63,461 nt of DNA, filler included, from Folioceros fuciformis (GCA_049999805.1; 22 parts of 22 records of this genome joined end to end with filler, not necessarily neighbours in it), one strand, 5' to 3'. Positions 14,313-47,807 are shown, counted from the whole stretch's first letter. Translations and numbers: made by a program. The notes: a model not told the origin generated them from the letters alone.

Positions 14313-14592
14313 NNNNNNNNNNNNNNNNNNNNNNNNNNNNNNNNNNNNNNNNNNNNTTAATTAATTAANNNNNNNNNNNNNNNNNNNNNNNNNNNNNNNN
14401 NNNNNNNNNNNNGCTTCCATGAAATCTTCTTCCTTCTTTTGTTTACTACTCATAACCCCATACAACCACCAATAGCGCGGCCGACCAAACGGATCAAAAT
14501 GCGAGGCCGGCATGAGCCATGCATGCTCTATCGCAATCGGCATGATTACATTGGCGGGCCACGCCGGTCGTAGCTAACTCGCTGCCCCTAGC

Positions 14593-15446
14593 CTACGACT
14601 GTTTTCTCTTGCGCGAGGCCCTGGCTGCCAGCGATCGCACCCTCCGAGGCACGCCGGGGTTCACTAGCGCCCTCCTCTTCATTCAGTGTGCCATCATGAC
14701 GGGATGCAGCTGCTCAAACACGCTGTACAACGGTGCAATGGTGCTTTATCCGGCAGCGATGTGGAGGCGTCCCGAATGGAAGATGGTGACAGTCATCTCG
14801 GTGCTGCCCTCGAACTTCGCTATCAACCCATTGAACCCCTCTCAATGCCGGTGGGTCCAAGCGCACTTGTTTCACCTCGAGCGCGCTCATGCCCTCAACT
14901 AGGGTTGCGTGAAGCCCTGCCAAGTCGATTGCGTCCGCACCTGCGTCGTCTTCATGCAGTGTGGCATGCACCACAATGTCGGTGACCTTGAGGTCGTTGG
15001 GATCAAAGCGTGCATCGTACCCCAGCCTCTTCACCATCGCGACAAGCTTCTCGCAAGCACCATTCTGCTGCTCGCGCCATGCTGGTCCTAGCACGACCAC
15101 ACGCCCTGTCCTCAACACGCGCAGCGTCAGGTAAGGCCCCGAGGATCCGCTGAGTCGCACCCTCACCGTTGCCATGGCTCCACCATTTTGCTCATGATGG
15201 TACTCCACGTTCGGAAGGTGGAGAGCCAAGTGAGTCAAGTCGAATCGCACGTGAAGCGTGGTGCTTGCCACCACGTTCACTAGCTTGGGTATCACCCCCG
15301 ATGGATGCTCTCTTCAAAGTGCGCACGCGTCCTCGTCAGCGTCGACCAATGCTAATCCCCGTGGGCGTGTCTTTATACACGTACCGCGCCATGGTCCTCG
15401 TCCGGCTCGTCTCGGCTGCGACGGCCACATCGTGCGGGTCATGCAT
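14593..15446 (-). pseudogene. Divergent intronless TATA-binding-protein-like gene, copy 1
   Basis: IPKLVNVVASTTLHVRFDLTHLALHLPNVEY..TGRVVVLG..MVKRLGY..KVTDIVV..FNGLI..VTIFHSGRL..FEQLHPVM aligns by eye with both TBP repeats. About two frameshifts and three stops. Confidence 0.85.
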
Positions 15447-15660
15447 CTCCGCATTGGTCGGGCCCGACTTAACGCACACGTGCGCGCGAGCGACACCGAG
15501 TGCCGCACGGCGTCGTCCTTTCGTTGGAGCGCTGGCACGTGCTGAAGCGATTCCAAGTGCGCGAAGGGACGTCCTTTGGATTTTGCTGCAAGAGCACGTT
15601 AGTACCGGCCCACGGCAGCAACTACTAGCTCTAAGTGCATACACCGCATGCCAACACAAG

Positions 15661-15668
15661 TATATATA
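15661..15668 (-). promoter_or_regulatory. Candidate TATA box upstream of the TBP-like gene
   Basis: TATATATA in GC-rich context, about 215 nt upstream of the inferred ATG. Confidence 0.35.
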
Positions 15669-16043
15669 GGACCACTCGCCCTTGGTCTTTGGCGAGTGCT
15701 TTGCGCGCAGGCTAGAACTTGTATCTCGATAAATCTACGTGTCGTACGTGATGAATATCGCCACGCACCGTTACCCAAGGACAACCGTGTTCAGGGAATG
15801 GTACCGCCCCTCCCATGTGCAACCCTTTTCCTGGTTTTCCCTCTAGGCCCTGACCCTCAGCGCTGCAGGGTTCCCGAGCATGACCAACGTTTTGTCGCTT
15901 CCATGAAATCTTCTTCCTTCTTTTGTTTACTACTCATAACCCCNNNNNNNNNNNNNNNNNNNNNNNNNNNNNNNNNNNNNNNNNNNNTTAATTAATTAAN
16001 NNNNNNNNNNNNNNNNNNNNNNNNNNNNNNNNNNNNNNNNNNN

Positions 16044-21966: not shown

Positions 21967-22283
21967 NNNNNNNNNNNNNNNNNNNNNNNNNNNNNNNNNN
22001 NNNNNNNNNNTTAATTAATTAANNNNNNNNNNNNNNNNNNNNNNNNNNNNNNNNNNNNNNNNNNNNATACGTGTGTTGGCGTGCGGTGTATGCATATAGA
22101 GCTAGTAGTTGCTGATGTGGGCCGGTACTAATGTGCTCCTGCGGCGGAATCCAAAGGATGTCCTTGCGTGCACTTGGAATCGTTTCCGCGTGTGCCAGCG
22201 ATCCAACGAAAGGATGACGACATGCGGCACTCGGGATCGCTCCCGTGCGTGCGTGCGTCGTGTTGGGCCTAGCCGATGTGGAG

Positions 22284-23134
22284 ATGCATGACCCGCGCGA
22301 CGTGGCCGCCACAGCCGAGACGAGTTGGACGAGGACCATGGCGTGGTACGTGTATAAAGACACGTCCACGGGATTAGCATTGGTCGACGCTAACGAGGAC
22401 GTGTGCGCACTTCGAAGAGAGCATCCATTGAGGGTGATACCCAAGCTAGTCAACGTGGTGGTAAGCACCACGCTTCATGTGCGATTCGACTTGACTCACT
22501 TGGCTCTCCACCTTCCCAACGTGGAGTACCATCCTTAGCAAAATGGTGGAGCCATGGCAATGGTGAGGGTGCGACTCAATGGGTCCTCGGGGCCTTACCT
22601 GACGCTGCACGTGTTAAGGACAGGGCATGTAGTCGTGCTAGGGCCAGCATCGCGCGAGCAGCAGAATGGTGCTTGCGAGAAGCTTGTCACGATGGTGAAG
22701 AGGCTGGGTACGATGCACACTTTGATCCCAACGACCTCAAGGTCACCGAGATTGTGGTGCATGCAGCACTACTTGAAGACGACATGGATGCGGACGCAAT
22801 CGACTTGGCAAGGCTTCGCAAAACCCTAGCTGCGGGCATGAGCGCACTCAAGTTGAAACTAGTGCACTTGGACCTACCGGCATTGAGCGGGTTCAGTGGG
22901 TTGATAGTGAAGTTCGAGGGCAGCACCGAGATGTCCGTCACAATCTTGCATTCGGAACGCCTTCACATTGCTGCCGGAGAAAGCACCATTACACCGCTGT
23001 ACAACTTGTTTGAGCAGGTGCATCCCATCATGATGGCACACAGAATGAAGAGGAGGGCGCTAGCGAACCCCGACGCGCCTTAGAGTGTGCGATCGCGGGC
23101 GGCCAGCGCCCCATGCAAGAGAAAGCGGTCGTAG
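22284..23134 (+). pseudogene. Divergent TBP-like gene, copy 2
   Basis: Colinear with copy 1. TAG at 22536, -1 frameshift near 22708, TAG at 23081. Confidence 0.85.
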
Positions 23135-26100
23135 GCTAGGGGCAGTGAGTTAGTTACGACCGACGCGGCCTGCCAATGTCATCATGCCGATTGCGATAGA
23201 GCATGCATGGCTCACACCGGCCTCACATTTTGATCCATTTGGTCGGCCACGCAATTGGTGGTTGTACTTGGTTATGAGTAGTAAACAAAAGAAGGAAGAA
23301 GATTTCATGGAAGCAANNNNNNNNNNNNNNNNNNNNNNNNNNNNNNNNNNNNNNNNNNNNTTAATTAATTAANNNNNNNNNNNNNNNNNNNNNNNNNNNN
23401 NNNNNNNNNNNNNNNNCCCATATACTTCTTTTCTAATTTCCCTTTTCTATTTTTCTCTTATTTTTTTGGATTTAATTCCAGAAATTTTGACTCTACTCTC
23501 TCACATGCTTTCTTCCCCTCATAGTCCGGGACCTATCCCAGCGCCTCGAGATCAGTTTCCCAAGGCCAAAAAAACCATTTCGGCTAGAAGCCAATTCTGC
23601 TGAAAAAGCTGCTGATTTCAAGTCAAGGTCCGACTGCTCATCACACTTCTTCTCACCTCTTCCCTTTTCTTCTCCCATTGCTTGTACTCCGCCCATGAAG
23701 GCAGGCTCAGCCACCATGGGGAAAAATTGCAAGGGAAGGCTTTGAGGGTAGCCATCCAGCAAGAAAGAGGTGGTGTCCGCAAGATCTTTGAAGATCCAGC
23801 ATCGTTCAAGGTCTCAGGATAGTTTAATTGGTGGTGGATACTTATGGTGGTAGGGTCAGCAAGTTGTCGGGCTAGCTCATCAATATTGGCGGCAGGACGT
23901 GCCAGGAAAGTCTAAATAAGTGGCTAGTGATAGTTGGCTAGGCTAGTTGTCTTATTAAAGTAATAATTGTCAAGCTAGAGAGAGGTGAGGTAAGAGAGAG
24001 AGGCTCCTATAAGATAGAGTGAGCCCCTAGGAGGCAGGGTGTTACTTTATGATTTTTCTTGGGCTGCCCCTGCTTGGATACAGCAGTGTGTGTCGGCTAT
24101 GCATGTGTGCAGCGTCTGGCAAAGCTTTGAGAAGTAGTGACCATGGTTAAGGGCTGGGTCCCTTTAATTCTTGATCGTGCTCTTCGTGTCGTGCCCCATG
24201 ATCTGTCATAATTGTTTCCTCGCAGGGCTGGAGTGAGTGTTGACCATGCTTGCATGGTATCCAGTAGGATGGTGGGTGGCGGCATGCTCCTCTTTGGAGT
24301 TAGTCTAGTGACTTTTGCCGAGTGGGGGAGTCAAGACGGAAGCGTAGAAGGTAGTGGTGTTGTTGCTGGTTACTGGTGCTGGTACTGGTGCTGGAGAGAG
24401 TGAGTGAGGGAAGTCGCAGATCTGAGAGGTTAATGTCATCGTACTGACTGGAGTACATTTGTGGGCACCGAGAGAGGTGTAGTTGACTGCTAGACAGCGA
24501 GGACTGTCCCATGTCTGATCAGAGCTGGAGGCGAGTCTTCGAATCCGTCATCGAGTCGATTGAGTCCGACCCTCCATCCATAGTAGTGAGGAACTCCATC
24601 GCTCCTTCGTGGGAACAAAACCCTATGTTTCAACGATAGTGGCATAAGTGTAGCCACTAAAGGTTGAACTCGTTGGCAATCAGTGCTCGGGGTTTTGCCG
24701 CCACACTAGGAAACATTGTTTGACTTAGCACACCTACCACCTTGGGAAGGTCCTATTACTGAACCACCTACGAAGAAAGAGGGGAATATACCTACGAATG
24801 GTGGAGGGGGACAGTTGGAGAAAGGAGGACCTACTACGGAAGGAAAAGGATGAGAAGAGGCACAAGAGACAATAGAGGGCAAAACGGTACAAACAAAGAC
24901 TAAGCCTACAGGCGCCGATTGTGGTCCTAAGCGTTTGGAAGGAGAAAATCAGGGATTGAAGAAAGACATCCAGCTGATGCATCCAACTATCTTGGAGGCT
25001 CGAGGGGTAGAGGATCTTCCTATGCCAAGTGATTCAGACCCAACCAGACCTCCTATAGTGGCATCCAAGGAAGTGAAGGACCCCTTTTCCAAAGAAATCA
25101 CGTTTGCAGAACCCCGAGAGACAATAGCAAGGAGATTAGGAGGAGGAAGCAATGAGAGGATAGCGTTTGCCTACACAATGGCTAGAGGAGGAGGATAGCT
25201 TGGCTGTGAGTGACAATTTGATCTCTAGATATAGAAATAGCCAATTGCCTCTTAGTTAGACGAGATACTTAATAGATTGCTTTTTGGTTTTGCTTTAATT
25301 ACACCATCGGTGCCTAGGTACCTAGCCTAGAATAGATAGCAGGCTAGGTGTTGAGAAAGAGTTTGTTGTGGCGTTTTCAAACTTGGTTGTAGAGCCCTTT
25401 CGATGCTGAAGGATTTCTCAGAAATGAAGGATTCCATCCTTTATTATGAGACATTGAGCTCTTCTCTTCTAACTTCTTGTCGATCATGTTGTTTTGTTTC
25501 TGACACTAGAGACAACCACTTGCTCACAGCGATAGACTAGGGAAACCTACAATGATAGTGGGTGTGGCCACTCAGCAAAGTTCCTCGGGGTTTGGGGATC
25601 TTAAGCAACCACATATATCATGTGCATAATTTTGTCTCAATTTCTGTAATTTTTGCCTATGTAATTTCTGCAACTTGGTGGACTCACAATAATTATACTC
25701 TTGAGTACAAGCTTGGAAGATGTTGAGGAGATTCAAAGCATGGCCACATGTACTACTACAAGTGTTCTTTCATCTATTATTGCCCACGTTGCTCAATGAC
25801 CGACCATCGATAGGATTCCCAAGACAATGGAATGTGTAAAACTACATGATTTCTTCATCTTGACTAATCATTGCCCAGGTAGCTTACAATGAGATATGCC
25901 TAGTTAATTGGCTTTTCTTGACAGCATGAGACTCATTGTTGTACTCAGTGCAAATGTCGGGCCCAAAAATTATGGTCCTGGAAAGGATATTTTTTGGAAT
26001 GTCAATTTTTGCAAAATTGTGTAACAGTCCGAAAATAGCGTCGGATCGGCGGTTCCGTTTCGGGCCGGCGTGGTTTCTGGACTAGGTCCGTTGTGACACC

Positions 26101-35497: not shown

Positions 35498-35654
35498 NNN
35501 NNNNNNNNNNNNNNNNNNNNNNNNNNNNNNNNNNNNNNNNNTTAATTAATTAANNNNNNNNNNNNNNNNNNNNNNNNNNNNNNNNNNNNNNNNNNNNCCA
35601 ACTGAAAGAGGAACTTGGCTCCTAGGTCGCCGGAGTCAGTGGCCCCTTTCTAGG

Positions 35655-37247
35655 ATGGCTCGTGTGTCCCTGCAAGCGACTTCAGGTTGCCTCACCCGCT
35701 CTCGCCAGGCCCAATACTTGCACTGGAATATTCGTCTTGCAATTGCCGGGTCGTCCCTTCACTATCTCAAAGCACGATTTCTAGGTCAGAGGAATCGCAG
35801 ACCGATAGGAGTGAGTTGTTCTCTACATCATGGCTCACGGCTGCATCTTGAAGGGCGGTCACCAGCTCCTCTGCCAACTTCCCTAGCCTCTCTGGATTTT
35901 GATACCGAAGGCCAGCCTAACTCTGTGACTTCGGCATACGTGCACATCCCGTTCTGTCGGCGGCGATGTCACTACTGCGACTTCCCGATCGTGGCAATTG
36001 GGGAGAAGGAGTGGACAGGGCCAGGGCAAGACCATGTCAACAGCAACATGGCAGATTATGTGGACCTGGTCTGCAGAGAGATATCCACTACTGCAAAAGC
36101 CCATCAGAGGCATGCTCTCAAGACGGTATTCTTTGGTGGTGGAACTCCGTCCTTGCTGCCTCCACGCATGCTCTCAACCATCATGGACTGTCTTCGGCGT
36201 CACTTTGGTATAAGAGATGGAGCTGAAGTGTCCATCGAGATGGATCCAGGGACATTCGATGCAACGTCTCTCCAGCTCTTGGTCGACACGGGGGTAACAC
36301 GAGTGTCACTCGGCGTGCAGGCATTTCAAGAGCATCTTCTGAGGAGGTGTGGTCGAGCTCATGGGCTCGAGGATGTCTATGATGCAGTGAATTTACTCCG
36401 ATCAAGCGTCATCAAGAACTGGAGCATGGACATCATCTCGTCGCTGCCGGGTCAGACTCTGGAGCTTTGGGAGCAGACACTGCAGGAAGCCCTTCGAGCT
36501 GGACCAAGTCATATCTCCGTGTATGACTTACAGATCGAGAAGGGCACACAGTTTGATCGCTGGTTTAAACCGGGGCAAGCTCCTCTGCCAACCGATGAAC
36601 TATCTGCTGATTTTTACAGGGTGGCAAGCAAGGTGTTATCAGAAGCAGGATTCGTGCACTACGAGATTAGCAACTATGCCAAGCCAGGTTTTTGCTGTCA
36701 GCACAACAAGGTCTATTGGCTCAACCGGCCCTACTACGCCTTTGGGCTAGGCTCTGCAAGTTATATCGACGGGGTAAGATTTTCCAGGCCTCGGAGGTTG
36801 AAAGAATATGCAGCATTCGTTGACAACCTGGACTCGTCGGCCATACAGGTTCCTCTTGGCCAGCAGAGTGTGGAAGACAGCTTTTTAGATACCATCATGT
36901 TATCCATGAGGCTTGCTCGTGGATTGGACATGCAACAACTCCTGCTCAACTATGGCCATCTACTCACCGTGACGACATTGAAAGCGGTGTTGCCGTATGT
37001 GACAAGCGGACATGTGTTGGTGCTCGATCCTTCCAGAAAAGTACTACCTGTCATGACGCTTATAGAAATTTGCCATGGATGTGGTGATGTTCCGTCTACA
37101 GGAACTGATGTTCGGAACCCTGGCTCGTCTGGTTCGGAACTTCACAGGTTCGCAGTTGTTGGGTTTGTGCGGCTCACTGATCCCGAGGGTTTCTTGTTTT
37201 CCAATGAGGTGATATCGGCCATGTTCGCAGCAGTAGGTTTTCCCTAA
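35655..37247 (+). CDS. HemW/HemN-like radical SAM protein with organellar-type presequence, intronless
   Basis: YVHIPFCRRRCHYCDF, FFGGGTPS, RVSLGVQ, HISVYDL, HYEISNY and HN..YW. Confidence 0.94.
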   Translation: MARVSLQATSGCLTRSRQAQYLHWNIRLAIAGSSLHYLKARFLGQRNRRPIGVSCSLHHGSRLHLEGRSPAPLPTSLASLDFDTEGQPNSVTSAYVHIPFCRRRCHYCDFPIVAIGEKEWTGPGQDHVNSNMADYVDLVCREISTTAKAHQRHALKTVFFGGGTPSLLPPRMLSTIMDCLRRHFGIRDGAEVSIEMDPGTFDATSLQLLVDTGVTRVSLGVQAFQEHLLRRCGRAHGLEDVYDAVNLLRSSVIKNWSMDIISSLPGQTLELWEQTLQEALRAGPSHISVYDLQIEKGTQFDRWFKPGQAPLPTDELSADFYRVASKVLSEAGFVHYEISNYAKPGFCCQHNKVYWLNRPYYAFGLGSASYIDGVRFSRPRRLKEYAAFVDNLDSSAIQVPLGQQSVEDSFLDTIMLSMRLARGLDMQQLLLNYGHLLTVTTLKAVLPYVTSGHVLVLDPSRKVLPVMTLIEICHGCGDVPSTGTDVRNPGSSGSELHRFAVVGFVRLTDPEGFLFSNEVISAMFAAVGFP

Positions 37248-41783: not shown

Positions 41784-43579
41784 TGACGGACTTGTTCTTC
41801 CTGGTATAATGCTCCAATAACAGCACTGAGAGTTGGTATGGATTGGCCTACAGGGACAGGTTGACCAGGAACCTGGATAGGGACATTCTGAGTGGTGACG
41901 AAGGTCTGATAGCTAGGAGGAAGACTGAGAAGAAACTGTGACACCACTTCGATCTCAGTGAAGGTAGTGCCAAGGGAGGCTAGTTGAGCACGCAAGTGCC
42001 GGAATTTGCTCGTGTGAGCAGAAACCGAATCTCCCTCTCTCATCTTTAGGTTTATGAATTCTCCTCTAATAGCACACATTGTCATCAAGTTTACTACTTG
42101 GTAGGTAGAAGCTAACTAGTCCTATATAGCTTTGGAAGACTACAGGAATTCTATTTTAGGAACTAAATCAGAATCAAGGCCAGCGATAATCAGTGCAACA
42201 ACTACACTGTTTGCTGTATCCCACTTGATCTTCTGGCCTGGAGTAACGACAGCGCCAAAGACACTTGGATTGGAAGGAGTCCCAGGATTAGGGAAAATGC
42301 CATCCACTACTTTCCAAACTCCACGGGCAACTAATGTAGATTTCGCTCTAACTTTCCAGATATCATAATGAGTTCCATTAAATTGGTCTTTTTCTTTCAG
42401 GTCTCCTGTGAAGGATGGAGACACTGCTCTTAGTTGGATAGGAGAGGTGGGAGCAGCCATGAATGAGTCCACGACAAGCTAGACTATAGGGGAAGACATA
42501 CAGGTAAGAACCATTTCAGATGAAATTGGAAATTGAAATTAGAACCCTAACCGAAAGTCGTCTGACTAATTAGGGCTATTTCAAAATTGTTTATTGCTTG
42601 AAATAACTGAATGAGAGAATAACTGACATAACTGCTGTTCAGGGCGAGGAGAATTGAAGAGACAGCCCTGAATTTGTGGATAAAGCGAGCAACAACTGTG
42701 GTCAATCAGAAAACCCTAACTGCTGTCACTCAACCATCTCAGAAGAAATTCTCTCAAATTAGGTTGCAACAAGGCTTGCAGGCCTTGTGCAATCAGCAGT
42801 CTCATTCGGGATTACGTGCATCGAGTGCAACAATTATGTGATGTACTCAATGCCATGATCAATATCATAACTCATATTGTTTATTTTTCGCTGCAAACGT
42901 TCTTCCATATCATAAATTGATTCAAAAAAAGACTCCTAGAGCGCCTTGAGAAAATCTAACTTCAATTCTCTCCAAATATTTTTGAATTACATCTCCAGAT
43001 AAATCTCCTCCTCTCTTGGCCAGAAACTTGTGGAACGTCCAATTTCTCCTTCGATTTTGGATTTTTTGAACTCGAATAAAGATTCTACTTTATACAAGAG
43101 GGTGAGATTTTTGCTGTCTGGAAGTCATCTTCAAAATCTTGCTCACGTAGCTGAATTCGATGTTGTCTTCGCTCCTGGGCCTACTTGTGCCAAAATGCAC
43201 GGAGTTGAGTCCAATATTCGTCGAGATATTCTTGGCTCCATGGACCTTGTCGGGGTGGCGCAATCCATTCCACTCCTCGGCGAGTTTGATGTTGCAACTC
43301 CCGGGACAATGGTGGATCAACTACCCTCCTACGAGGCATGGTTGCAGGCCCACAAAGATCAGCATCTACAATTAGGCTCTGATACCATGTAACGGAGTCT
43401 CAAGCATCTAACATTAAGAAAAGTGCTAAGCGTGCAAGAGGCTTTGGGGCACACAAGTGAAGGTGCAAAATACTCAACTAAGTCAATAAACACAAAAAGG
43501 TCACATATATACATATAGGGTATGTGCCCTAACTAAAGTAGCTTTAAGTATGTTTATTTAACCCTAAGAGGTTATTTTT
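41784..43579 (-). mobile_element. Ty1/copia element C, 5' half: LTR (43388-43579), iMet PBS (43375-43387), leader and gag
   Basis: TGGTATCAGAGCC on the minus strand. Gag motif YDIWKVRAKSTL..VWKVVDG. Both ends overlap the next contig by 47 nt. Confidence 0.92.
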
Positions 43580-43679: not shown

Positions 43680-46600
43680 CTAAAGTAGCTTTAAGTATGT
43701 TTATTTAACCCTAAGAGGTTATTTTTATCTAACACGCCCACTTAACCTCGAACGGGTTCATTATGTTAGAAACTCGATTAAGAATCGTGATACGAAACAG
43801 TGAAAACCCTAAACCCTGAGGCAAGCAGCGCTCCATGACTCACGAACGTTCTCACCAGCCTCATTCAAGGCTGCACGCGAAAGTTTACACCGGCTCCGCG
43901 TGTTGAATCCGTAGCACCCCCACAAGCTCCGCGTGGAGATGGATTTGATATCTAATAAGATCGTTCCCATGGCCTTTTTGGTGAGCTGCCTCCTCTGGCT
44001 GGTCCTTTTCTTGATCGCTGTAGTACCTTGGTTGCTCCCACCAGCTTTCAAAATGGTTAGAAACTAGATCTGTGGGCATACATCTTAGCCTAGGCTTCAG
44101 GTGGCAGGAGGAGCAAATGACTCAGATGATGAAGGGAGCTCCATCTCTGTGGTCTCAGTGGCCTCAGCGAATTCCAGCAAGAAGTGGCCAACAACAAAGG
44201 ACAAGCAGCTGATTCAAGACCTCTTGGGTTTAGACGACAAGTGTGCAAGGTTGGAGAAGGAGTTGGAGGCTACCAAGCTAAGTGCGACTCAACTCACCAA
44301 CATGATCTCTGCTAGACTCAACTCAGGAGGAGGTGATTGCGAGCTGACAGTTGAGGAGTTCGAAGAGGTTCTGGCTGAGCTCTCAAAAGGCGGCTATGAC
44401 ATGCGCAAGGCTTAAATCGCAGTCAGGAAGAAAAAGGAAGGGAAGTAAAGGGTTTGGCGAGGTAGGAAATTCGTTCTTTTGCTCATGACTGCTCCCACGA
44501 CTGGATGTAACTGTAAGGCTTGATCCACTGGGATAGATGTAAGGGAACAAACTCCCACTAACAATGTGCAGAGCTGTAAGCTAGTGAAACTGTTGTTAAG
44601 CAAACAGGGCTATTGCGTCATGATGTAAGTTGGGGAGAAAAATCAATGAGACCTAGACCTTCAACATGTGTCTCATGTTTGTGTCTGGGAAGAGTTTTCG
44701 TCAATATATCCACTATGTTTGCATGTGTATGGACATAGGTAGGGCTAACGACACCTCGTGATTTTACATCCCTAATGTAATGGTGTTGTATCTCTATGTG
44801 TTTGGTTCGAGCGTGGAAACGAGGATGCTCAACAAGTTCTAGGGTAGATGCATTGTCACAGAAGAGGAGGGTTGGCTTAGGCTGTTCAGTGTGGACAAAC
44901 TGGAGAAAAACTCTTTCCCACTCTACCTCTTTTGCTGATTCTGTCAAGCACTTATATTCTACTTTTGTGCTGGGCTGAGCTATGCTTGTCTATTTCTTGC
45001 AGGACCAGCTTATGGCAGCAGATGACAGTAAGAAGACATAGGCAGATAGGCTCCTACGGGAATCTGAATCTGAGGCCTAGTCAGCGTTTGCGAAACCCTG
45101 CAAGGTAGGGGCCAAACTAGTCCGCTTGTAACACAAGCCAAGGTGAGGAGTACCTTTCAAATATCTGAAAATATGTTTAACTGCTGTCCAGTGGCTGCGT
45201 CCAAGGCACTCCAGAAACTGAGAAGTAGTGTTGACAGCATATGTAATATCCGGCCTCGTCCAGTTGCTAACAAAGAGTAGGCTGCCAACGGCATGCCTAT
45301 AAGGTACATCCTTCATATTTGCCTTGTCAAGTACTGAAGTCGAGCAGTCATTCTTGCTGAGTCATGTTCCAACAACAGTAGGAGTAGCGGCAGGATGTGA
45401 TGTGGCCATATGGAATCGCTGTAAAATCTCAAAAATATACTTATGCTAATGGATAATGATCATGCCTTGCTCACAAACTCAAAGGACTTGAATTCCTGGA
45501 TAGAATTTTAGTTCTCCAACATCTATCATCTTGAACTCCTTGTGAAGCATGTCTCGAACTTTTGCTAACAGTGGTTTGTCGGTGGAAGCAAAAATGGCGT
45601 CATCATATATGGCCAGCAAGACATAAGCTTTTCCATCATCATAGATGTACACCGAGGGATCTGCGGGACTCTGCTTAAAGCCAAGGGACTTCGGGCAAGT
45701 TTCTAACCTAGCATTCCAGCGTTCTGCACGACGAATTGGTTGTATAGGAACAGGAATAAGATCAGGAGTATCTCCAGAGTCAGGAGAAGAAGCTATGGAA
45801 CTTTGCTCACTTGAGTCTCCTAAACCTGCATCAGGATTCTGGCCAGGTAACTCAAGATCACCTACAGGTTGTTCAGAGGTGACGTGTTCTTCTGGATTTG
45901 GATCTACGTCGTGATCTGGATTTGCATTGGCAGGAAGAAGCTGTTGGTCTGCAGGTGGAGGAAGGGCATCTTGGTCGACAGAACCATCATCACCATCTAC
46001 ATCACATGGATATTCAGCAAAGTCCTCGGCATACAGAAGATCAGTAGGATGTCCAGGTAAAGTGCCATTCTCTAAAACTAGTGGATTTATTATCTCAATG
46101 AAAGTAACACTCCTAGCGATTGCGGGCTACAAAGTCTTAGGATTAATAAGCTTATAAGATTTGGTTACTTCACTGTAACCAACAAAGAGTAGGGGAAGAG
46201 CCCTATCATCTAACTTTCGCCGTTTCTCTGCAGGCACATATGCAAAGGCTTTGGAGCCAAAAACACGAAGATATGAAATGCTTGGCTTCCGATTCAAGAA
46301 GACTTCATATGGGGTCTTATTGGACAGAGCCTTAGTGGTAAGTAGGTTTAAAAATATAGGTTAATGTGACCACAGCTTCTGCCCAGTATGGAGAAGAGAG
46401 TCCAGACCACAGCAGCATAGATCTGGTCATGCCCATCAAGGTTTGGTTCTTTCTCTTCGCTACACCACTCTGTTGCTGAGTGTAAGGAACAATAAGTTCA
46501 TGTATTATGCCTTTGTCTTCCAGGAATTGTGTGAATACATTACTGACAAATTCGCTGCCATTATCAGATCTGAAAACCTTGAGAAGACGACCAGTCTGCC

Positions 46601-47807
46601 TTTGAACCAAAAGCAACCACTCTTGAAAAAGAGTGAACGTATCACTTTTCTTTTGCATGGGATATGTCCAAGTATATCGACTGAAGTTGTCTATGAAGGT
46701 AAGATAGTATTCTGCTCCACCCAAGAATGGGACTTGCAGTCGTCCAGAAATGTCTGAATGTACTAAATCCAAGATTGCTATTGTTCTGTGAGTAGGTGTA
46801 CAAGGAAATGAAGCTTCACGTTGTTTTGTTAAAACACAAATCTTGCATGTGGGGAGTTCCTTGAAACTTGAAGGTAACAGCTCCCTGTACTTGTCCTGTC
46901 TAGATGATGCCAGGAGTTTAGTCTTGTTAGCATGGCCAAGGCGTGCATGCTAGAGCCTGGCCATCTGGGTAGCTGTTAGGCTGCCATTAGTTGCTGAACA
47001 GACTTGCTCTCGATGTATACAGGAAATGTCTAGGCGATACAACTCTGACTCCAGAAAGGCCTTAAAGATACAGACTTCAGGAGCACTATGTCTAGTGAAG
47101 CAACATACAATCCTTGATACAGTAAGTACTAAACTTTTCATTTTCATGAGTTTGCTCAAGGACATCAAGTTTTTCGCCATCTTTGGGACATATAAGACAT
47201 CTGGAAGCACTAACTCAGAGTCATTATGCAACAGGAACTTGCAGGTTCCATATCCTAAGATACTTAGACTAGTGGCACTACTCTCATCACCAAGGTAGAC
47301 TCTGTCTGGAGCAGAAGAAAAAGTAAGGCAAGTGAAAAGAGACTCGTCCCGACAAATGTGCGCTGTTGCCCCATTGTCCAGGTACCAACTGTCAACCTCA
47401 CTCGCTAGAGTATTTAGACAGATAGTTAGAATCTTTACAACTGGCTTGCCTGAATTTGGTGTTGAGAAATCCATTGTATGCTTATCTTTATTTTTTTAGG
47501 TTGTTGAATTCGCAATTGCTGGACGAGGTGCTATCCTTAGAGGTTTGCCAGCTTTCTTTTTGCGACATTCACAAGCCCAGCGACTAGGCAGTCCACACCA
47601 ATTGCAGTTGCCTTGACGTTTTTGTATATTTGATGAGGAACTCTGGCTGCCATTGTTGGTTGGTCGTTGAGACTGATTTCTTCCACGACCTCGGCCTCTG
47701 CCCCTCCAGGCAGAAAATACCTTGTCATTCTTGCCTTTATGTTGTCCTTGTCCGCGCATGTGACGGACTTGTTCTTCCTGGTATAATGCTCCAATAACAG
47801 CACTGAG
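43680..47807 (-). mobile_element. Ty1/copia element C, remainder: knuckle, PR, INT, partly deleted RT, RNase H, PPT (43735-43743), 3' LTR start (43734)
   Basis: CNWCGLP, WYLDNGAT, LVHSDI and KHIEIQHHYIRD, with many stops. AAGTGGGCG is followed by TGTTAG. Confidence 0.93.
43939..44415 (+). CDS. Putative spliced antisense gene inside element C (exons 43939-43980 and 44101-44415)
   Basis: A GTGAGC..TTCAG 120-nt intron joins the exons in frame. Acidic, coiled-coil-like product. Confidence 0.45.

Follow-up and report, generated by a model that had tools for sequence, protein, structure and literature searches.

A self-overlapping 1484-bp unit with a broken, highly divergent TBP-like gene in a copia-rich streptophyte assembly

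The self-overlapping unit and its broken reading frames

The stretch analyzed here, 63,461 bases assigned to Folioceros fuciformis (GCA_049999805.1) and called the window below, is not one locus but a set of 24 short contigs (0.6–5.9 kb) joined by N/TTAATTAATTAA spacers, so that neighboring contigs are uninformative on genomic context. The contig at 14413-15943 (1531 bp, GC content 0.57) harbors a gene related to the TATA-box-binding protein (TBP); it is the sole contig of the 24 that overlaps itself. As the preliminary description of this DNA had stated, the same 47-mer stands at both of its ends, identical and at a spacing of 1484 nt, and an overlap of 47 nt was also found, in both directions, between the contigs 41784-43579 and 43680-47807; 47 nt is therefore taken as the overlap length of the assembler. 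The latter two contigs form a 5.8-kb graph cycle that contains pieces of a copia reverse transcriptase and is probably a long terminal repeat (LTR) retrotransposon with both LTRs collapsed, which means that a cycle in this assembly need not represent a tandem array. The copia cycle, however, is split into two contigs, whereas the TBP unit closes within one. Closure within a single contig is what is expected of a pruned cycle derived from a homogeneous tandem repeat, and the one other possibility would be unique DNA flanked by direct repeats exactly 47 nt long.

The A/G-rich tract of the 47-mer was found to carry a 23-nt duplication variant in other sequencing runs. Length variation seems to be concentrated in this stretch, a likely hotspot, and the graph probably branches here, which would have fixed where the contig terminates. 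It was also observed that the looping contig (14413-14459) and a second copy of the unit (23270-23314) both end in the same A/G-rich stretch of the sense strand.

The six other open reading frames (ORFs) of the unit matched no Pfam family (0/6), and no Rep, helicase, reverse transcriptase, or transposase was found in it, in agreement with the earlier statement that the unit lacks a transposase and a reverse transcriptase. Searches of the unit likewise returned no Rfam family, no tRNA, and no inverted repeat of at least 14 nt, and TATTAC, from the nonanucleotide of the circular Rep-encoding single-stranded (CRESS) type, had 0 occurrences on either strand. The candidate TATA box proposed earlier, TATATATA, is present at 15661-15668 and is a candidate by its sequence. 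The diverged second copy reported at 22067-23316 is real and lies in the opposite orientation (Table 1).

The claim that the unit holds one intronless TBP-fold reading frame did not survive reconstruction of that frame, since the looping copy contains two 1-bp insertions and two premature stops and copy 2 is broken elsewhere. Six runs are available under one species label, of which three, X1–X3 (one sample, one study), contain parts of the unit. Traced in the two-copy alignment, the former frame would begin at ATG 15446-15444 (another in-frame ATG stands at 15392-15390) and comprise ∼253 codons when the two extra bases are discounted, in the order ATG, N-terminal extension of ∼50 residues, repeat 1, linker, and repeat 2. 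The TGA at 14685-14683, where the TBP core normally ends, may be the native stop. The 193-aa ORF of the looping copy begins at a GTG that directly follows an in-frame TGA, and from about residue 150 it no longer reads in the TBP frame; repeat 2 of this copy continues in another frame and is interrupted by a TAA. Copy 2, in turn, contains a TAG at 22536-22538 within repeat 1, and it has lost 1 bp between 22705 and 22706. These lesions are not common to both copies, which indicates that the frame was open across both repeats in the founder of the family. Judged from their sequences, both window copies are pseudogenes and would make no functional TBP-like protein.

Table 1. Features of the self-overlapping unit and of its second copy, in window coordinates.
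Feature	Position	Strand	Basis or remark
Self-overlapping contig, one 1484-bp unit plus 47-nt repeated end	14413..15943	-	First and last 47 nt identical
47-mer, repeated at 15897-15943, closing the unit in the graph	14413..14459	.	A/G-rich tract on the TBP sense strand
Inferred former coding region	14683..15446	-	Frame reconstruction from the two-copy alignment; not open in the window
Longest open frame, 193 aa: repeat 1, linker, first half of repeat 2, then out-of-frame tail	14714..15295	-	Pfam PF00352
TBP repeat 1 (ORF residues 3-90)	15026..15289	-	Pfam, PDB, hhalign, AlphaFold2
Lesion 1: C-run one base longer, shifting the frame of the N-terminal extension	15357..15360	-	Versus copy 2 and the dominant X1/X2 variant
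Lesion 2: in-frame TGA (codon 44); CGA in copy 2 and runs X1–X3	15314..15316	-	Alignment, run contigs
Lesion 3: C-run one base longer, frameshift inside repeat 2	14836..14839	-	Two-copy alignment, run contigs
Lesion 4: TAA (codon 233) immediately preceding the last helix of repeat 2; GAA in copy 2	14746..14748	-	Two-copy alignment
Candidate TATA box	15661..15668	-	∼215–220 nt upstream of the inferred ATG
Diverged second copy, a pseudogene spanning unit positions 1-1251	22067..23316	+	88.7% identity over 1251 nt, three 1-bp gaps
Open piece of copy 2, whole TBP repeat 2 (P0177, 125 aa)	22706..23080	+	hhalign, AlphaFold2, VIA

Homology, fold, and relatives of the TBP-like cargo

The 193-aa ORF matched the Pfam family TBP (PF00352) over residues 3-90 with an E-value of 2.5e-11 and 43.7 bits, the cut-off being 22.9. 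Scores of 21.3 and 17.8 bits, just under the cut-off, were obtained with the pieces of copy 2 because a stop splits repeat 1. All 35 sequence matches in PDB at E ≤ 1 were TBPs or TBP fusions (35/35), the best being those of M. jannaschii (9.2e-10) and yeast (4e-9), and comparison of the ORF with an alignment of 38 TBPs by hhalign gave 99.2%. With the same 38-TBP alignment, AlphaFold2 returned a model with a predicted local distance difference test (pLDDT) score of 85–98 over residues 1-110 and mostly <50 after residue 148, and each of the 43 Foldseek matches of this model at E ≤ 0.001 was a TBP chain. The TBP homology asserted in the preliminary description thus held in the family search, the profile comparison, and the structural model, with a match above the cut-off and a TBP fold for repeat 1. 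The archaeal TBP models of NCBIfam matched at E 2e-10, yet with 40 bits against cut-offs of 181–347, giving no domain assignment; the 30 Protein Atlas feature matches were all TBP clusters and provided no lead on origin.

Repeat 2 was less readily recognized: Pfam found nothing for it at E ≤ 1, Foldseek of the P0177 model found nothing at E ≤ 0.001, and no single frame in the window spans both TBP repeats. The open piece of copy 2, P0177, aligned in register with repeat 2 of the TBP alignment (hhalign 48.5%, P 1.8e-4), and its AlphaFold2 model, with a modest pLDDT of 61, showed the succession strand-helix-four strands-helix. Comparison by VIA gave Z-scores of 6.4–7.2 to the second repeats of TBP chains (7o4i_O: Z 7.2, root-mean-square deviation 2.9, 80 residues aligned), scores that are tied with those of other proteins, some of TBP-like fold. 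On these comparisons, the presence of repeat 2 in the family is probable.

At the positions of the four DNA-kinking phenylalanines, which we take to be the DNA-intercalating ones of yeast TBP, repeat 1 shows N and L in the alignments and repeat 2 shows F and L, so that one of the four is kept. Relative to TBPs, repeat 1 contains an insertion of 7 residues and repeat 2 a longer one. From the residues at the phenylalanine positions, the protein, if it ever worked, probably did not bind TATA boxes in the canonical manner.

An exhaustive phmmer search of 1.84 billion protein representatives returned 54 matches at E ≤ 1e-3, none below 1e-30, and the best of them (2.2e-11) was only 39% identical, which bears out the characterization of the cargo as a highly divergent member of the TBP family. 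The top matches were TBPs of archaeal appearance that carry lysine tails, together with ordinary ones from eukaryotes, among them a duplicated TBP model of Penstemon. Identity to any TBP was 24–39%; that to canonical plant TBP was 29–35%, which makes a recent retrocopy of the host gene unlikely. Of the 162 candidates that a word-index protein search returned for residues 1-150, none reached E ≤ 0.01. In a maximum-likelihood tree computed from residues 1-148 and 37 matches, the query fell outside the archaeal-like clade (100/100) and beside divergent eukaryote-type TBPs from metagenomes; its terminal branch measured 3.9 changes/site (median 0.52), and it belonged to no starred group, so this placement is without support.

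The preliminary description had offered a viral, retrocopy, or rolling-circle-capture origin. The fragment of a large DNA virus, whether a nucleocytoplasmic large DNA virus (NCLDV) or another, that became endogenized and had its TBP-like gene amplified later would account for a gene that is intronless and extremely divergent and has no cellular orthologue among the 1.84 billion representatives. Giant-virus (NCLDV) footprints were reported in a moss and a lycophyte (PMC4083422), and intronless, divergent, methylation-prone, foreign-looking DNA would fit such insertions. The insertions described there are, however, large multi-gene regions, unlike a 1.5-kb tandem unit for which neither a viral relative in the databases searched nor a neighboring viral gene in the unit was found. 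No viral relatives were found among the 1.84 billion representatives; IMG/VR gave 15 pattern matches and the metagenomes of the Joint Genome Institute (JGI) 398 protein pattern matches, 0 of which were confirmed in either, a conserved 32-mer had 0 matches in the latter, and nothing exceeded 39% identity in the whole protein library. The unit contains no other gene, viral or otherwise, and the closest relatives of its cargo are archaeal-like or canonical eukaryotic TBPs, with the long query branch standing among the eukaryote-type ones. A viral source is accordingly considered quite improbable. Regarding retrocopying, the gene is intronless and the A/G-rich tract lies ∼190–240 nt downstream of the stop, where the unit closes, a cycle in which a target-site duplication is undefinable. 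Regarding rolling-circle capture, the unit holds none of the Rep or helicase genes, TATTAC motifs, or inverted repeats expected of Helitrons or CRESS elements, and Helitron termini would be unrecognizable in a cycle. On the sequences searched, the evidence tells neither for nor against a viral or a retrocopy origin.

Two groups of drifted TBPs offer a comparison. The metazoan TBPL1/TRF2 proteins share with the unit gene a TBP-like fold, as modeled here for repeat 1, and the replacement of the conserved DNA-contacting phenylalanine of the N-lobe, here by N and L; in TBPL1, this universally conserved residue is Trp according to PMC7221094. Passages of that paper describe TBPL1/2 for animals only, and its main text uses the word ‘plant’ 0 times. 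In contrast to these proteins, the gene of the unit is not orthologous to TBPL1/2, is tandemly amplified, and is broken in both copies. The Fragaria ‘TATA-box-binding protein 1-like’ cluster (P0053) is, similarly, a drifted plant TBP core, obtained in the same search at E 9.6e-4. It is, however, ∼25–27% identical to the query, a kinship at family level only, and tandem amplification is not known there. It was observed that Fragaria has a small family of such proteins, 211–229 aa in length, at several loci. Lineage-specific TBP paralogues may be commoner in plants than is usually assumed.

Divergence of the copies and arrangement of the unit in independent runs

The two window copies differ by 138 substitutions, comprising 101 transitions and 37 transversions, of which 71/138 lie in CpG context; copy 2 has lost 38 CpGs and the unit 17. 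Within the former coding frame, the differences are spread over codon positions 1/2/3 as 23/29/21, and the codon changes are 16 synonymous against 52 non-synonymous. The coding part has diverged by 9.4%, compared with 10.4% for the downstream and 18% for the upstream sequence. The best conserved stretch is repeat 1, at 92–97% against 80–87% upstream. The base changes are those of copies that diverged neutrally through what would be methylation-driven decay, with no sign in the alignment of purifying selection since the split. The selfish or stage-specific transcription module suggested in the preliminary description is thus unsupported in the window, where both copies are neutrally diverged pseudogenes.

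Run X3 resembles a bisulfite-type library, with G>A at 71 places against 12–19 places for the other types of transition, whereas X1 and X2 are balanced. Among the differences listed, the G>A rows seen in X3 only (15081, 15438, 15443, 15462, and 15490) are all five at a G not preceded by C, and several loose-end strings of X3 keep the G of CpG. The pattern suggests that the CpGs of the repeat are methylated, and apparent CpG methylation fits the CpG-transition-rich divergence of the copies.

For the arrangement of the unit, Logan k = 31 contigs of the runs were aligned to it, and depth is the word depth of contigs in runs selected for containing the unit. The share of the words of the unit was 0.28 in X1, 0.22 in X2, and next to none in X3; three small runs from other studies (49, 6, and 4 million letters) contained next to none of these words and are too tiny to weigh. 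Run X4, presumed to be RNA, gave 0 aligned pieces, a blank that carries no information on expression, and no RNA library is among the runs found to contain the unit. The pieces that aligned numbered 47 in X1, 36 in X2, and 49 in X3, and their likeness to the unit ranged from ≥99% to <90%, which shows that many sequence variants exist. The dominant pieces had a depth of 111–128 in X1 (to ∼130 at some sites) and 57–72 in X2, against 8–14 and 7–9, respectively, for minor variants, a ratio of ∼9–10. Both X1 and X2 contained a record that runs from the tail of the unit through the 47-mer, one extra letter, and the repeated 22 nt into the head. The depth at this junction (15943->14438) was 14 for X1 and 7.6 for X2, its shorter side comprising 82 letters, and the record, which comes from an independent data set and another assembler, extends into 60 nt of head-specific sequence. 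Together with the dominant variant being 9–10 times deeper than the minor ones, it supports the amplified, head-to-tail array that had been proposed. At 14519, 14817, 15257, 15308, and 15719, loose ends pass from the unit to unrelated sequence, as fits array edges, truncated copies, or chromosomal insertions, and they argue against a free circle.

The same data bear on the alternative that there is no array, and that the contig is either a small circle or replicon outside the chromosomes or a loop produced in assembly where single-copy DNA is flanked by a short direct repeat. The window by itself shows only a contig with identical ends, and an LTR element also gives a cycle here (41784-43579 with 43680-47807), both as such an origin would have it. 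The independent contig nevertheless passes from the tail into head-specific sequence, a loop confined to one contig would need the direct repeat to be of exactly the overlap length, a linear diverged copy exists, the X1/X2 variants join unrelated sequence, and the unit has no Rep gene, TATTAC nonanucleotide, or inverted repeat. A circle or loop is therefore regarded as very improbable.

We favor, with somewhat more confidence than doubt, the view that the unit represents a lineage-specific, tandemly amplified, intronless orphan paralogue of TBP that is now largely decaying, methylated repeat DNA. The unit would be one copy of a head-to-tail amplified nuclear repeat with a period of 1484 bp in a copia-rich streptophyte genome, and the original unit would have comprised one intronless gene and ∼0.7 kb of spacer. 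The founder gene would have encoded a very divergent two-repeat TBP-fold protein of ∼250–266 codons with an N-terminal extension of ∼50 residues, either a TBP paralogue that was functional and had long since diverged or a TBP-like gene that had been acquired; that it was functional is suggested because the copies carry different lesions over one common, otherwise open frame. Amplification most likely proceeded by unequal exchange between neighboring units, after which unconstrained copies would have accumulated CpG-transition-dominated substitutions, frameshifts, and stops, as in methylated repeats. We infer a copy number of ∼10–20.

Several observations weigh against this view. Both 1-bp insertions (lesions 1 and 3) stand in C-runs and could be assembly errors. 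Of the window copy's four lesions, three are missing from the dominant X1/X2 variant: the extra base is absent at 15357 in 129.6 of 129.6 of the depth in X1 and 95.2 of 95.2 in X2, and at 14836 in 124.9 of 124.9 and 80.2 of 80.2, and 15316 reads A>G (CGA for TGA) at the entire covering depth in X1, X2, and X3. Counted against the window copy, the coding indels listed for the dominant variant (−1, +3, and −1) preserve the frame, whereas those outside the coding part (+4, +1, +1, and small deletions) do not. This hints that the main array may still be under some coding constraint and that ‘decaying’ may fit the window copies better than the whole family. In addition, the depths are without a single-copy baseline, so that copy number is a ratio to the minor variants only, and all three runs containing the unit come from one sample of one study. 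There is one junction record among those listed, and it is of a low-depth variant; the order of the array rests on short contigs and not on long reads.

These points lend some weight to a functional ampliconic family, in which a main array of intact, near-identical units expresses a TBP-related factor in one life stage, in the germ line, or in genetic conflict, and the window copies are its dead members. Apart from the three missing lesions and the remaining listed coding indel of +3, such a family would agree with the conservation of repeat 1 over the upstream part and with a founder frame that was open and very far from any TBP, implying that it evolved as a coding gene. Conversely, the 40 of 237 differences that are listed include no change at the TAA 14746-14748, so that the dominant unit may or may not be intact, the two window copies show no codon-position bias, and three of the four DNA-kinking phenylalanines are replaced. 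On balance, an expressed family of this kind is considered unlikely, though it is the main rival. Its ampliconic parallels would be multi-copy genes of sex chromosomes or testis, such as the Drosophila Stellate genes and the repeat with an embedded gene on the male chromosome of Marchantia. Such arrays resemble the present one in having a kilobase-scale unit with one small gene each and near-identical dominant copies next to diverged, truncated ones; they differ in that the cargo here is a paralogue of a basal transcription factor and the window copies are pseudogenes. The more specific proposal, a non-seed streptophyte array of at least ∼10 intact, intronless orphan TBP-fold genes that are stage-expressed and have lost most TATA-kinking residues, with the window copies as its dead fringe, is held to be unlikely as well, and slightly more doubtful.

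Host setting and significance

Domains of Ty1/copia elements (RVT_2, rve, and gag) occur in many contigs, throughout the window. An uninterrupted ORF of 565 aa at 35550-37247 (+) encodes a HemW-like radical-SAM protein that is 51–55% identical to moss, liverwort, and lycophyte proteins and ∼47–51% identical to those of seed plants and ferns. It was also noted that this ORF is 61% identical to one short contig, the best named matches being those at 51–55%. The absence of introns from such a gene is out of the ordinary among land plants; it may indicate a retrogene or else help to place the lineage. The host is taken as a streptophyte (plant lineage) because the HemW-like ORF matches bryophyte and lycophyte proteins and copia domains run throughout the window; by the identities of these proteins, it would not be close to any annotated plant of the searched collection. 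A dinoflagellate origin, considered for the TBP-like factor and tandem gene arrays of that group, was rejected, as the window genes are closest to land-plant proteins.

The unit could alternatively derive from a contaminant or an associated organism and not from the plant. Its GC content lies at the upper end of the contig range in the window (0.39–0.61), and the runs that contain it are those of one sample, while the three small runs of other studies are nearly free of its words. Other genic contigs of the window, however, have a GC content of 0.53–0.61, the CpG decay and apparent CpG methylation fit a plant nuclear repeat, and blanks in runs so tiny carry no weight. Contamination is thus seen as hardly credible.

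Elsewhere in the window, the contig pairs 33021-34373/34474-35497 and 50022-53474/53575-58305 share identical 30-nt ends or starts and are variant (allelic or paralogous) paths of one graph. The pair 50022-53474/53575-58305 was found to be two versions of one copia element.

TBP is among the most conserved and lowest-copy of eukaryotic genes, and TBP-related factors with altered promoter specificity have been described mainly from animals. A full-text literature search turned up no plant TBP-like gene described as amplified in tandem, although the supplementary paralogue tables of PMC7221094, beyond its main text, may list plant ones. As the window shows pseudogene copies only, the finding is mainly a lead for this organism. 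A plant-lineage TBP paralogue so divergent and amplified head to tail would be an unusual case of a core transcription factor becoming repeat DNA. If intact units are expressed, they would provide a lineage-specific alternative core-promoter factor, and an intact array, if true, would be a plant counterpart of the animal TBP-related factors, amplified like germ-line or conflict genes.

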